From: a virus
Taxonomy: Duplodnaviria > Heunggongvirae > Uroviricota > Caudoviricetes
Strand: one strand, 5' to 3'
Virus record (IMG/VR): IMGVR_UViG_2778261514_000003
Length of the DNA stretch: 21,846 bases
A program made the position numbers and the translations under genes. Position 1 is the stretch's first letter, and each line of letters opens with the position of its first letter. The notes beneath the pieces are model-generated. The model did no database searches. It was not told the DNA's origin and saw nothing but the letters and a program-made list of their open reading frames with translations. Below are positions 1 to 1,422 of the stretch, piece by piece.

Positions 1-63
1 CGAACCTGTATTTCAAAATTAAAGAAGACCGGCGTAAGGCGGCGCGGGGAGAGTAGACGATGA
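1..63 (+). CDS. Possible 3' end of an upstream gene truncated by the window start; basic C-terminal tail (...KTGVRRRGESRR)
   Basis: Frame 1 is open from base 1 to a TGA at 61-63, which overlaps the ATG at 60-62 of the next ORF (ATGA overlap, suggesting translational coupling). Only 20 codons are visible, so identity is unknown; a holin C-terminus is one possibility given the position upstream of the endolysin. Confidence 0.2.
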   Translation, partial: RTCISKLKKTGVRRRGESRR

Positions 64-569
64 ATAAACAATACGAACTGGTTGTTAAAGGGATAAATAA
101 TTACCCGGATAAGATTACTGTTACTGTAGCGCTGGAAACGGGTGGGTATACGTCACTGTTGTTGCCAAATGTGGTGATTGATCTTGATCGTGTTGAAGGT
201 GCCCCGCTGGAGTTTTACGAAGCTGAGGCGAAAAAGAAGGCGAAGCAGTTTTTCATGGATATTGCTGCCGGGTTATGTGAAGGGGATGAACAGTCACAGG
301 AAAAGTGCCTTTGTTCCGAAGATCGGTATACCATACAAATTAACAATGCATATAACACGATACTGTCAGAAAAAGATGATATCGAATCACGCATTGAAAA
401 ACTGGAGAATTGCGTTGTTGAACTGAATAAAAAACTGTCGACGCTGATGCCTTCTGAAGATGCAAAAAAACGCCGCGATGAGCAGTTCGCGGCGTTTTAC
501 GATTATTGCATTGAAGTTACTCGCAGGAATTTTGTGAAGGCTTTTGAGGAGAGTAAATCTCTTCAGTAA
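60..569 (+). CDS. Hypothetical protein, 169 aa, Lys/Glu-rich with predicted coiled-coil C-terminal half; function unknown (moron)
   Basis: Complete ORF with GGGAGA Shine-Dalgarno-like sequence about 7 nt upstream of the ATG. Visibly more AT-rich than the structural genes, by eye roughly 40% GC. No recognisable similarity to lambda proteins. Confidence 0.65.
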   Translation: MNKQYELVVKGINNYPDKITVTVALETGGYTSLLLPNVVIDLDRVEGAPLEFYEAEAKKKAKQFFMDIAAGLCEGDEQSQEKCLCSEDRYTIQINNAYNTILSEKDDIESRIEKLENCVVELNKKLSTLMPSEDAKKRRDEQFAAFYDYCIEVTRRNFVKAFEESKSLQ

Positions 570-779
570 GCTTAATGGCGGACGCTGCAATTAATTCAGG
601 AAGGTCCGCAAGGTCATCTGTCAGTGGGAATGATGAAAAATCGGCGGCAGTTCTGTTAAGAATTGCTTTAACTAATTCCTTTTCCTCATCCGGCAACACG
701 TTGATTAGAGCTACGACTGCTTGCCTGAGTGCGATTAAATCAGCAAAAGTTTGTTTTGGTAGATTTGGATAATCCATAG
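517..779 (-). CDS. Hypothetical small acidic protein, about 87 aa (MDYPNLPKQTFADLIALRQ...SQNSCE); function unknown
   Basis: Minus-strand ORF with start ATG at 777-779 (reverse complement) preceded by a GAGGTG ribosome-binding site. Protein is acidic (about 14 D/E versus 7 K/R). Its 3' end overlaps the 3' end of ORF 60-569 by 53 nt. The longer 161-aa version in the ORF track has no ribosome-binding site and would overlap the endolysin start. Confidence 0.45.
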
Positions 780-888
780 TCACCTCTGTGTTTATCAGAT
801 TGACATACCCTGGCCAGTGCCCACCACTGGCGGGGTGAAGGCTTAACATATCCAGGGATTCGGAACCGATAAATCCTGATAAATATCC

Positions 889-1422
889 ATGAACGCAAAA
901 ATCAAATACGGCCTGTCGGCTGTCGTTCTGGCGCTGATTGCCGCAGGGGCTTCTGCGCCTGAAATCCTCGACCAGTTTCTGGATGAAAAGGAAGGTAACC
1001 ACACCACGGCATACCGTGATGGTGCGGGTATCTGGACCATCTGCCGTGGAGCCACCCGGGTGGATGGTAAGCCTGTGATTCCTGGCATGAAGCTGTCGAA
1101 GGAAAAATGCGACCGGGTTAACGCTATCGAACGGGATAAGGCGCTGGCATGGGTGGCGAAAAACATCAGAGTGCCACTGACCGAACCTCAGAAAGCGGGT
1201 ATTGCGTCATTCTGCCCGTATAACATTGGCCCCGGTAAGTGTTTCCCGTCGACGTTTTATAAACGAATTAATGCAGGCGATCGCAGAGGAGCGTGTGAAG
1301 CGATTCGCTGGTGGATTAAGGACGGTGGCAGAGACTGCCGTATCCGCTCAAATAATTGCTACGGTCAGGTATCTCGTCGCGACCAGGAGAGTGCGCTGGC
1401 GTGCTGGGGTATCGACAGATAA
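889..1422 (+). CDS. R: Endolysin, SAR-type phage lysozyme (T4-lysozyme-like fold, N-terminal signal-arrest-release domain)
   Basis: 177 aa. N-terminal Gly/Ala-rich weakly hydrophobic segment (YGLSAVVLALIAAGASA) typical of SAR domains, followed by a lysozyme catalytic region (E...D...T within EGNHTTAYRDGAGIWTICRGAT). Position immediately upstream of Rz/Rz1. Confidence 0.88.
   Translation: MNAKIKYGLSAVVLALIAAGASAPEILDQFLDEKEGNHTTAYRDGAGIWTICRGATRVDGKPVIPGMKLSKEKCDRVNAIERDKALAWVAKNIRVPLTEPQKAGIASFCPYNIGPGKCFPSTFYKRINAGDRRGACEAIRWWIKDGGRDCRIRSNNCYGQVSRRDQESALACWGIDR

Follow-up and report, generated by a model that had tools for sequence, protein, structure and literature searches.

Our analysis of a 21,846-nt stretch of tailed-virus DNA (IMG/VR record IMGVR_UViG_2778261514_000003; the window in what follows) indicates that it probably begins inside the late lysis operon of an Escherichia coli lambdoid prophage of the phage-21/Stx/Qin type, at a recombinational slot between a ydfR-family gene and the endolysin gene that is filled by a self-contained moron cassette in antisense orientation. 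The operon has the gene order class II holin, ydfR-family gene, endolysin and Rz/Rz1, and the region is 97.6% identical to the viable phages PhiR12_1, PhiR12_2 and PhiR12_5 and to E. coli prophages, the latter being ordered as holin, DUF1327, hypothetical (minus strand) and lysozyme. At the left edge, positions 1–56 (plus strand, frame 3) hold the 3′ end of the class II holin gene; the translation of 3–56 is NLYFKIKEDRRKAARGE followed by a stop codon (TAG, 54–56), in agreement with the annotated holins of PhiR12_1 and of E. coli genomes. The right border of the slot is the endolysin of the phage lysozyme family (889–1422, plus strand; PF00959, E=3e-24; annotated as lysozyme R or rrrQ), which has a hydrophobic N-terminal segment and lacks a Shine-Dalgarno sequence. 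Between these borders lie a plus-strand ORF (A) and a minus-strand ORF (B), with GC contents of 0.416 and 0.418 (GC3 of B, 0.345), compared with an endolysin value of 0.543 and a whole-window value of 0.553, which bears out the AT-richness ascribed to both in the first-pass annotation of this DNA. The same annotation pointed out that neither ORF has a counterpart in the S-R region of lambda, which is correct; the relevant comparison, though, is with the phage-21/Stx/Qin lysis cassettes, in which S and R are normally separated by a gene.

The late-strand ORF A (60–569, plus strand, 169 aa), whose extent is confirmed, codes for a YdfR-family protein and starts with an ATG at 60, 3 nt past the holin stop codon. 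Its supposed ATGA coupling to the upstream gene accordingly falls away: the ATGA is made up of the start ATG and the base that opens the second codon, so that there is no stop/start overlap with the holin. Residues 1–80 of A (nt 60–299) form a DUF1327 domain (PF07041; 118 bits versus a cut-off of 25, E=2e-34), followed by a variable linker and a helical tail (residues ~100–169; nt 357–566), the last ~35 aa of which are read from the antisense cassette. Many E. coli prophages, Qin of K-12 among them, have a YdfR/DUF1327 gene flanked by the class II holin and endolysin genes, and the N-terminal domain of A is 41% identical to K-12 YdfR (P76160) in a MAFFT alignment and above the Pfam threshold. 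The resident part of A is its first 80 residues, with the C-terminal part alone being cassette-linked, and the notion of a two-gene insertion cannot stand. Members of the YdfR family range from 103 to 296 aa and combine the common N-terminal domain with alternative C-termini. The PGAP label of A is ‘DUF1327, missing C-terminus’ (incomplete); phrog_2091 matches A over its full length (E=1e-84), and the 169-aa protein is named as complete by NCBI elsewhere. For residues 1–72 of K-12 YdfR, binding to the N-terminal (catalytic) half of RNase E and co-purification of RNA have been reported (PMC13232886). The DUF1327 domain of A is the counterpart of that RNase E-binding part of its homologue, the report being on K-12 YdfR only. 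A literature search with DUF1327, ydfR, the protein accessions, the PHROG identifiers and PhiR12 recovered this paper alone.

The minus-strand gene B (517–777; phrog_2572, WP_001625288.1) encodes 86 aa; the first-pass annotation had correctly placed its end at 517, whereas its start, given as 779 (about 87 aa), is the ATG at 777–775. In representatives of three subfamilies (41–49% amino acid identity) B is the sole open frame of the six, the other five containing 2–11 stops; its indels are all multiples of three, and substitutions by codon position follow the order 2 < 1 < 3. By these coding signatures, whose conservation exceeds what chance would give, B is a genuine gene, and the check for coding conservation in relatives that had been suggested thus came out in its favour. 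Within subfamilies its pN/pS is ~0.5, a value drawn from few substitutions. The start ATG has become ACG in seven IMG/VR loci, and one lineage has a frameshift at the B stop, losses that point to B being dispensable in cryptic prophages. The protein (9.5 kDa) is acidic, as had been claimed (pI 4.34, net charge −7), and has no transmembrane segment, its maximum 19-residue hydropathy being 1.6 (1.1 for A). We predict it to be soluble and three-helical, with helices at 8–27, 30–48 and 56–74 and a disordered tail at 75–86, on the basis of AF2 models with a pLDDT of 65 (single sequence) and 70 (12-sequence alignment).

The B family comprises 26 clusters, found in E. coli and Salmonella only. An exhaustive HMMER search with B against 1.8 billion representatives gave 13 matches, of which the two long ones (P0141 and P0142) are fungal TPR/CHAT repeat proteins that we took as spurious helical-repeat matches. 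In Pfam no match rose above its cut-off (DUF1823, 15 bits; ABATE, 13 bits); the DUF1823 label that B carries in the PhiR12 GenBank entries was rejected on this ground (PF08853, 15.3 bits versus a cut-off of 25, E=0.023, over 30 residues only). Searches of NCBIfam and PADLOC returned no match, and among the PHROGs B matches phrog_2572 only, a family listed without an assigned function. The best match in a profile search of the PDB was AcrIIC4 at E=0.7, not a significant relative, and fold searches with the B model found no similarity to a known protein. Across all these searches B is without a detectable relative of known function. The profile searches that the first-pass annotation suggested for both proteins led to DUF1327 for the N-terminal part of A and to no family of known function for B.

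The actual insertion is, as far as sequence features tell, a minus-strand cassette of ~400 nt. Its candidate promoter (845–886, minus strand) combines a −35-like TTTATC (873–868), a 17-nt spacer and a −10-like TATGTT (850–845), with a presumed transcript start near 838. An alignment shows TTTATC-N17-TATGTT to be invariant throughout the three B subfamilies, even in Salmonella loci lacking an adjacent endolysin, and 73 of 74 cargo-bearing slots, against 0 of 30 empty ones, have the −10 hexamer (TATGTT or TATTGT). The two hexamers match the consensus at only 3/6 and 4/6 positions, and a consensus promoter/terminator scanner run over 1–900 returned nothing relevant, missing this candidate as well as the candidate terminator. 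The candidate promoter contains an invariant 21-nt element, ATATTTATCAGGATTTATCGG (886–866, minus strand), which is equally invariant in empty slots; its conservation can therefore not be credited to B alone, and it may serve endolysin translation or recombination. Downstream, the presumed 5′ UTR of B contains a leader hairpin read from the sequence (GCCAGTG-GTGGG-CACTGGC; 813–831, minus strand), and the unrelated cargo ORFs MHN, MSE and MEI have this leader ahead of them too. Next comes the Shine-Dalgarno sequence of B, AGAGGTGA (780–787, minus strand), likewise read from the sequence, with GAGG at 786–783, 5 nt before the ATG; the good ribosome-binding site seen earlier is thus upheld, and in B types 2 and 3 it takes the form of AAGGA 6 nt ahead of the start codon. 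B and the divergent endolysin are separated by a spacer of 111 bp (778–888), the divergence having been recognized in the first-pass annotation.

At its other end the cassette has a candidate intrinsic terminator (467–498, minus strand), a GC-rich hairpin with the stem 471–478/487–494 plus A-U pairs. Its GC stem of 8–12 bp is followed by U7 on the minus strand (the plus-strand A-run at 464–470), and the hairpin-U7 lies 19 nt beyond the B stop (MFE −22.5 kcal/mol, z −3.4). On the plus strand the same hairpin reads as KKRRDEQFAAF of A. A hairpin occurs at the same place in all three B subfamilies, with altered sequence in types 2 and 3, and four unrelated cargo ORFs of the slot are likewise followed by comparable elements of hairpin and T-run; in a cargo-less ydfR variant of 296 aa a 5-codon deletion destroys it. 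In the covariation analysis 84.5% of cells were paired, versus 37–64% when the alignment was slid, and there are two compensatory pairs only, both in one lineage; the covariation is not significant, since 91 of 500 shuffles equal it, and is confounded with conservation of the encoded peptide. A search of Rfam gave no family reaching its gathering score; a weak rimP-leader match at 1489–1577 (E=0.067), away from the locus, was judged to be due to chance.

A and B converge and overlap by 53 nt at their 3′ ends (517–569), exactly as first annotated. This length of 53 nt recurs in all type-1 loci, with 59 nt for types 2 and 3, and B is convergent with a partner ORF in every locus examined. In six of six representatives the plus ORF reads B in the antisense frame with the fewest stops (2–3 per 86 codons); a run-on of 17 codons is therefore expected, and the overlap alone is unremarkable. 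The plus-strand tail on ydfR differs with the cargo type, some types having none, and variants of A with 197 and 211 aa carry an MSE-type and a B-type tail in tandem. The resident ydfR, having probably lost its own end, reads through the candidate terminator of the cassette and 53 nt of B, which would account for both the convergent overlap and the ‘coiled-coil tail’; the overlap with the neighboring gene is thus largely a by-product of cassette insertion. The plus-strand tail may yet be more than that, since it is kept in frame across six length variants (168, 169, 171, 176, 183 and 211 aa) and the B-type tail is also found as a separate 73-aa gene in Salmonella.

The cassette-specific DNA (510–812) is present in 294 of 5426 complete E. 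coli genomes, and the endolysin-proximal segment (813/845–888) in 2209 of the same 5426 (~40%). B itself was recovered in 8 of 50,697 phage records, and a scan of GTDB species representatives retrieved one locus only, in E. coli. The cassette is carried by the Qin-like prophages of CFT073 and O145:H28 RM13516; most carriers of B are cryptic Qin-like prophages that are no longer infective, and B is intact in plaque-forming phages. Scanning with the exact 21-nt element recovered 120 IMG/VR loci, in which the slot holds B, MDN-90, MHN-104, MSE-91, MEI-95, a 233-aa ORF or nothing. The slot, its 5′ region remaining the same, thus hosts at least five other unrelated families of small ORFs besides B, or is empty. 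By hhalign, MDN, MHN, MSE and MEI are homologous neither to B nor to one another, and all four are PHROGs without an assigned function; a homology of B to the BL21-type 90-aa cargo was rejected by the same comparison. The proposal of an accessory module of undescribed function at a variable position of the lysis cassette is supported by these distributions and by the other cargo, or none, in the slot.

We accordingly regard the B cassette as an ordinary kind of element, a moron, albeit in a tidy, uncharacterised cargo slot: its presence varies at the same position among close relatives, its base composition is unlike that of its neighbors (GC 0.418 for B versus 0.543 and 0.553) and it has, by in silico prediction, its own factor-independent terminator. 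Read along the minus strand, the cassette would consist of a weak sigma-70-like promoter abutting the endolysin start, the constant hairpin leader, the Shine-Dalgarno sequence, B and the intrinsic terminator. As long as the late operon is silent, in the lysogen and soon after infection, the promoter of the cassette would drive production of B. Q-antiterminated late transcription, running in the opposite sense, would then shut B off through transcriptional collision and RNA pairing. The product most likely binds and blocks another protein, of either host or phage origin.

Among the other readings that we weighed, the tail of A and B might form a co-evolving binding pair, for instance an effector and its inhibitor or antidote, with B restraining the tail-bearing late protein until late transcription silences B and the overlap keeping the genes inseparable. 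We hold this to be unlikely, though it has several observations in its favor: a tail of the matching type is found on the convergent partner in every B locus, across three subfamilies and at least four contexts, among them the DUF1327 fusion (168–243 aa), the separate 73-aa gene after a Salmonella DUF2514 spanin, which begins at the spanin stop like coupled phage genes, and a 144-aa protein of a different kind. Homology between the type 1 and type 2 tails spans 62 aa (31% identity, E=7e-6) and reaches past hairpin and overlap, the frame of the tail is kept as described above, and the part of the type 2 tail that lies outside the overlap has a pN/pS of 0.23, although the substitution counts behind this value are tiny. 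However, linkage alone accounts for the co-occurrence of tail and B because the tail is encoded by the 3′ UTR, terminator and 3′ end of B; with the other cargo types, too, ydfR acquires a tail peculiar to the cargo, or none; no significant similarity links the type 1 to the type 3 tails, and the most conserved motif of the tail is the hairpin itself. The related idea of a toxin-antitoxin-like pair, raised in the first-pass annotation, finds no backing, as the genes are convergent without a common operon and no toxin-antitoxin family was found in Pfam, NCBIfam or PADLOC. A type I system fares no better, given that neither protein has a hydrophobic segment and the antisense partner has a conserved ORF. 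A more ambitious version of the slot, to which we assign a distinctly low probability, sees the ydfR-endolysin junction as a promoter-equipped dock at which at least six unrelated families of ~90-aa soluble proteins would be exchanged, to be expressed as long as the late operon is off and silenced automatically by the convergent late transcription. It would be an enterobacterial counterpart of loci of the anti-CRISPR type, with cargo inhibiting host immunity or competing phages, and B and the tail would be a cognate pair gating the RNase E-binding YdfR.

Less probable again is that the functional product is the minus-strand antisense RNA, targeting the ydfR 3′ end along with the late S-ydfR-R message, with the B ORF being secondary; cleavage or interference would then tune endolysin expression or the timing of lysis, as lambda OOP does with cII. 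Complementarity of the transcript would extend over ~100 nt of the plus ORF (465–569) and the whole S-to-R junction RNA, its candidate promoter, leader hairpin and candidate terminator are more conserved than the B protein, the transcript frame of the slot is shared by ORFs that differ greatly, and the convergent 3′ overlap of 53–59 nt resembles the OOP/cII geometry. Yet B retains a clear coding signature across ~50% protein divergence, with its Shine-Dalgarno sequence and start conserved, every cargo type has a Shine-Dalgarno sequence and an ORF of 86–104 codons, which an RNA-only function would not need, and no Rfam family matches. That B is an anti-defence protein, such as a DNA-mimic anti-restriction protein made at DNA entry to block restriction or other immunity, strikes us as very unlikely. 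Its net charge is only −7, the candidate promoter is weak and its carriers are mostly prophages that no longer infect; speaking for such a role are the small, acidic and soluble nature of B, the fixed slot, in which one candidate promoter serves several small-protein families unrelated to one another, recalling anti-CRISPR loci, and expression by the host RNA polymerase independently of N or Q, which would fit an early function. The DNA mimicry suggested by the first-pass annotation (compare Ocr and ArdA) is not borne out, with a charge of −7 on 86 aa and no match in the Pfam, PHROG annotation, PADLOC, PDB sequence or fold searches. Finally, we give hardly any credence to the absence of a functional gene, with the minus ORF arising by chance and the plus ORF being a decaying pseudogene. 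The PGAP call of an incomplete plus ORF, the loss of the B start or stop in some lineages and the pN/pS of ~0.5 within subfamilies would fit such decay, but the B frame is open in all subfamilies where the other five are closed by stops, indels are in frame, the Shine-Dalgarno sequence is conserved, B is intact in plaque-forming phages and the 169-aa protein is a full-length phrog_2091 match that NCBI elsewhere treats as complete.

Taken as a moron in a cargo slot, B alone is one more uncharacterised prophage accessory gene, and an ordinary one. Of wider interest is the slot, which is compact, sharp-bordered and placed in a very common lysis cassette, and hosts at least six unrelated small-protein families with a shared promoter-like region and terminators of their own; with so many unrelated families it offers a convenient place to seek factors of phage-host or phage-phage interaction. 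The varied C-termini of YdfR proteins and the pseudogene calls at NCBI can be explained by the plus ORF reading into whichever antisense cassette is present. The locus also provides a candidate example of an intrinsic terminator hidden in the coding sequence of the opposite strand. With the module present in CFT073 and in the plaque-forming PhiR12 phages, these predictions are cheaply testable.

Several known systems resemble the locus in part. The K-12 Qin arrangement essQ-ydfR-rrrQ shares with the window the order class II holin, DUF1327 gene and lysozyme; K-12 YdfR has 103 aa and a stop overlapping the rrrQ start, whereas the window protein has 169 aa with a cassette-derived tail, and Qin of K-12, unlike the window, has no minus-strand gene. 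OOP of lambda is a non-coding RNA convergent with the 3′ end of cII. Like it, the B locus is predicted to give a short convergent transcript complementary, through its 3′ part, to the last ~50–100 nt of a phage gene, leaving scope for RNase III-dependent control; in contrast to OOP, the predicted B transcript carries a conserved ORF of 86 codons. In the acr loci of Mu-like Pseudomonas phages the genes are co-oriented with their neighbors and followed by a conserved aca regulator. These loci and the cargo slot have in common a fixed place in the late operon, interchangeable unrelated small proteins and a shared promoter (a candidate one here), but the slot has no aca-like gene and B lacks similarity to Acr proteins (best E=0.7). 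The type I toxin-antitoxin systems txpA/RatA and bsrG/SR4 of Bacillus prophages each pair a short hydrophobic membrane toxin with a non-coding RNA; like A and B they are prophage-borne convergent units with 3′ ends overlapping by tens of nucleotides, whereas both partners in our case are hydrophilic proteins. A further comparison is with the morons of lambdoid phages as defined by Juhala, Hendrix and colleagues, of which bor and lom of lambda are the textbook cases. The B cassette differs from the lambda morons in its position (between holin-side gene and endolysin, not beyond Rz), in having its candidate terminator embedded in the coding sequence of the neighboring late gene, and in encoding a predicted soluble, acidic and helical product in place of a lipoprotein or outer-membrane protein. 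Like lambdoid morons, it is an extra gene that is present or absent among relatives at the same map position, with a base composition unlike that of its neighbors and with its own promoter and factor-independent terminator (both candidates in the B cassette), and B resembles bor in its location inside the late region and in its direction of transcription, opposite to that of the late operon.

Judging from its gene order, the start of the window is a late region of the phage-21/Stx/Qin type. Frame 3 of bases 1–56 (plus strand) reads ...NLYFKIKEDRRKAARGE up to a TAG at 54–56, in agreement with the annotated holins of the nearest relatives, and forms the 3′ end of a class II holin gene. The plus-strand ORF then runs from an ATG at 60 to 569 (169 aa), and the minus-strand gene B from an ATG at 777–775, preceded by AGAGGTGA, to 517 (86 aa), its start lying 111 nt from that of the plus-strand endolysin gene at 889. 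Downstream of the endolysin we found Rz (1904–2377, plus; Pfam match PF03245) with an embedded out-of-frame Rz1-type ORF (2130–2315, plus), followed by the terminase; an Rz1 lipoprotein gene embedded in Rz is the usual arrangement. Over its first 1500 bases the window shows 97.6% identity to Escherichia phages PhiR12_1, PhiR12_2, and PhiR12_5 and to prophages of a few E. coli genomes, all with the annotated order holin, DUF1327, small minus-strand hypothetical, lysozyme. The first-pass annotation had described an AT-rich pair of convergent ORFs, and both the overlap (53 nt) and the composition hold (GC 0.416 in the plus ORF and 0.418 in B, the latter with a GC3 of 0.345, vs 0.543 in the endolysin and 0.553 in the window). 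Its start for B at 779, giving about 87 aa, was slightly off, and in place of the ATGA coupling of the plus ORF to the upstream gene there are three bases between the holin stop and the ATG. Separately, the late operon contains a strong terminator-like hairpin on the plus strand (1513–1545; AAAACCCCG...CGGGGTTTT, 14 pairs) between the endolysin and small ORFs 5′ of Rz; a weak Rfam rimP-leader match overlapping it (1489–1577, minus; E 0.067) is probably due to chance.

Residues 1–80 of the plus ORF match Pfam DUF1327 with 118 bits (cut-off 25), and its whole 169 aa match phrog_2091. The YdfR family combines a single N-terminal domain with many C-termini (lengths of 103, 114, 116, 169, 176, 183, 197, 211, 243, 263, 287, and 296 aa). 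In the K-12 Qin prophage the order is the same, essQ-ydfR-rrrQ, with nothing on the minus strand; ydfR there codes for 103 aa and overlaps the start of rrrQ, whereas the window version codes for 169 aa. In the literature found, functional data on the family concern K-12 YdfR only: two-hybrid and co-purification assays are reported to show that its residues 1–72 bind RNase E at the enzyme's N-terminal half; YdfR also pulls down RNA, and its over-expression changes the transcriptome little (PMC13232886). The evidence supports a plus ORF that is for the most part the resident DUF1327 gene, its tail coming from the cassette, namely the minus-strand unit of promoter-like element, leader hairpin, Shine-Dalgarno sequence, B, and hairpin with U-run. 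Of the two-gene insertion proposed earlier, the cassette with B stands, and of the plus ORF only the C-terminal part is linked to it. PGAP calls the window-type plus gene 'incomplete, missing C-terminus'. Although their ORFs are intact, ydfR-family genes whose C-termini derive from cassettes are entered as pseudogenes by the NCBI pipeline (RefSeq L002, L003, L017, L018, and L232), which elsewhere labels the same plus-ORF protein complete (WP entries behind P0019). A cargo-less 296-aa variant (L026–L028) is extended on the plus strand by a C-terminal domain that has about 130 aa and no Pfam match, and its tail ...PGLTYLK(G/V)RI recurs in 268-aa variants paired with the 104-aa cargo.

Of 5426 complete E. 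coli genomes, 294 have the cassette-specific DNA (510–812) and 2209 have the last 44–76 nt 5′ of the endolysin. A scan of IMG/VR with the exact 21-nt element ATATTTATCAGGATTTATCGG (886–866, minus; two ATTTATC repeats 10 nt apart) as query retrieved at least 120 loci, in which we read the slot content downstream on the minus strand: the MDN 90-aa family, also found in BL21 (at least about 36 loci), B type 1 (at least about 23), the MHN 104-aa family (at least about 9), the MEI 95-aa family (at least 2), the MSE 91-aa family (at least 1), B type 3 (at least 2), B type 2 (at least 1), a 233-aa ORF (at least 3), or nothing (at least about 30). MDN, MHN, MSE, and MEI have no detectable relation to B or among themselves, and the 90-, 91-, 95-, and 104-aa families correspond to phrog_2411, phrog_18136, phrog_10490, and phrog_1853, all of unknown function. 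The 233-aa ORF, unannotated by PGAP and without a match in Pfam, PADLOC, or PHROG, fills the slot in E. coli SMN197SH3 (L111:814–1515, minus) and a few IMG/VR contigs; about 250 nt of it lie opposite the 3′ part of a 263-aa ydfR variant. The promoter-like region is common to all cargo types and the leader hairpin GCCAGTGGTGGGCACTGGC to four of them; each small cargo ORF, B and the four other small families alike, has its own Shine-Dalgarno sequence and then its own GC hairpin and T-run. Among the matches listed, 73 of 74 filled slots carry the −10 hexamer; the 30 empty slots all lack it, with AGGTTT, CAGCTT, or CAACTT at that position. These patterns support the ydfR-endolysin junction as a cargo slot holding a self-contained antisense cassette, whose anatomy, as read from sequence, is that of a moron (an autonomous accessory gene in a phage late region): candidate promoter, ORF, candidate terminator, odd composition, and patchy distribution.

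All three B subfamilies have, on the minus strand, the promoter-like region ATATTTATCAGG(A/C)TTTATC(G/T)G, followed after exactly 17 nt by TATGTT or TATTGT; in the window the candidate −35-like TTTATC lies at 873–868 and the candidate −10-like TATGTT at 850–845. This region is conserved far more than the coding region and is kept in Salmonella type 2 loci lacking an adjacent endolysin. The 21-nt element is invariant in filled slots, empty slots, and the endolysin-less Salmonella loci; since empty slots keep it too, part of its conservation must have a cause other than a B promoter, which could be a leader of the endolysin (a gene without a Shine-Dalgarno sequence), a recombination linker, or a protein-binding site. 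Past the stop of B by 19 bases lies a terminator-like hairpin (467–498, minus, with a plus-strand A-run at 464–470; AAAACGCCGCGA-N8-TCGCGGCGTTTT, then more U) of −22.5 kcal/mol (z −3.4), retained in all B subfamilies, with two pairs altered on both sides in type 3; a covariation test on its few lineages was not significant. As the hairpin doubles on the plus strand as the codons for KKRRDEQFAAF, RNA and peptide conservation are inseparable. The cargo-less 296-aa variant has lost one arm through a five-codon deletion.

B is a real gene, though an orphan one. Relatives recovered by word-indexed and exhaustive searches made up only 26 clusters, whose sources are E. coli, Salmonella, or gut metagenomes: type 1 (86–88 aa; the window, Qin-like prophages, and one Salmonella prophage), type 2 (93 aa, GTG start; Salmonella Gifsy-like), and type 3 (89–93 aa). 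Across these subfamilies (41–49% identity) only B's frame of the six is stop-free, indels are all multiples of three, and differences by codon position follow 2 < 1 < 3; pN/pS within subfamilies is about 0.5, on too few changes to be informative. The protein is acidic (net charge −7, pI 4.3), with no hydrophobic segment found, and its AlphaFold model (a modest pLDDT of 70) has three helices (8–27, 30–48, and 56–74) and a disordered tail; the protein resembles no family, defence model, solved structure, or predicted viral structure beyond generic helical bundles. As for the DNA-mimic or toxin-antitoxin role once suggested, a DNA mimic, a type I, and a type II toxin-antitoxin system each want a defining feature here. 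In the PhiR12 records B is labelled 'DUF1823', which goes back to a sub-threshold 15-bit match, and an exhaustive protein search gave 33–35% identity over about 60 aa, several times per protein, to repeats of P0141 and P0142 (975 and 1305 aa, TPR/CHAT-type), which we judged a spurious helical-repeat resemblance. B has decayed in two lineages of cryptic prophages, showing that it is dispensable to the host: its ATG is ACG in seven loci with the 176-aa ydfR variant (L080–L082, L085–L087, and L098), and a one-base indel at its stop alters both overlapping ORF ends at once in L049, L056, L063, and L076.

Each cargo type is paired with its own plus-strand tail: MDN with ...TPPKW-stop (35-nt overlap), MSE with ...KSTPTKNEVLAADEM...HLQQP-stop (68 nt), B type 1 with ...KRRDEQFAAFYDYCIEVTRRNFVKAFEESKSLQ-stop (53 nt), and B types 2 and 3 with related tails (59 nt), while MHN goes with no tail and ORFs that do not overlap. 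The MSE candidate terminator reads KSTPTKNEVL in translation, and the 197- and 211-aa ydfR variants have an MSE-type and then a B-type tail in succession, which looks like cassettes stacked on one another. Of the antisense frames of B, the plus ORF enters the one poorest in stops, and the simplest reading of the overlap's origin is that ydfR extends into whichever cassette is there. That B and the tail belong together as a cognate pair, the overlap being more than a by-product, seems unlikely to us, even with several points in its favor: tails of types 1 and 2 show homology along 62 aa, a stretch that reaches past the cis-constrained part; the Salmonella tail is a separate 73-aa gene starting at the spanin stop; and the E. 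coli plus protein has six length variants, all in frame to an identical end.

Host polymerase would transcribe B while the late operon is off, Q-modified polymerase reading through from the holin side would silence it, and B would most likely act through binding another protein; its role could lie in anti-defence, in exclusion, or in controlling either lysis or the YdfR protein. The module is also found in a Qin-like cryptic prophage of CFT073, a well-studied uropathogen (L232, 1335025–1335285; essQ, ydfR, B as WP_001306174.1, rrrQ). The B cassette is a genuine and tidy finding of a familiar kind: lambdoid morons are the closest known kind, with a bor-like orientation, and K-12 Qin essQ-ydfR-rrrQ is the closest gene neighborhood; its likeness to the OOP/cII geometry and to acr-type loci is one of analogy and does not place the B locus in either class.
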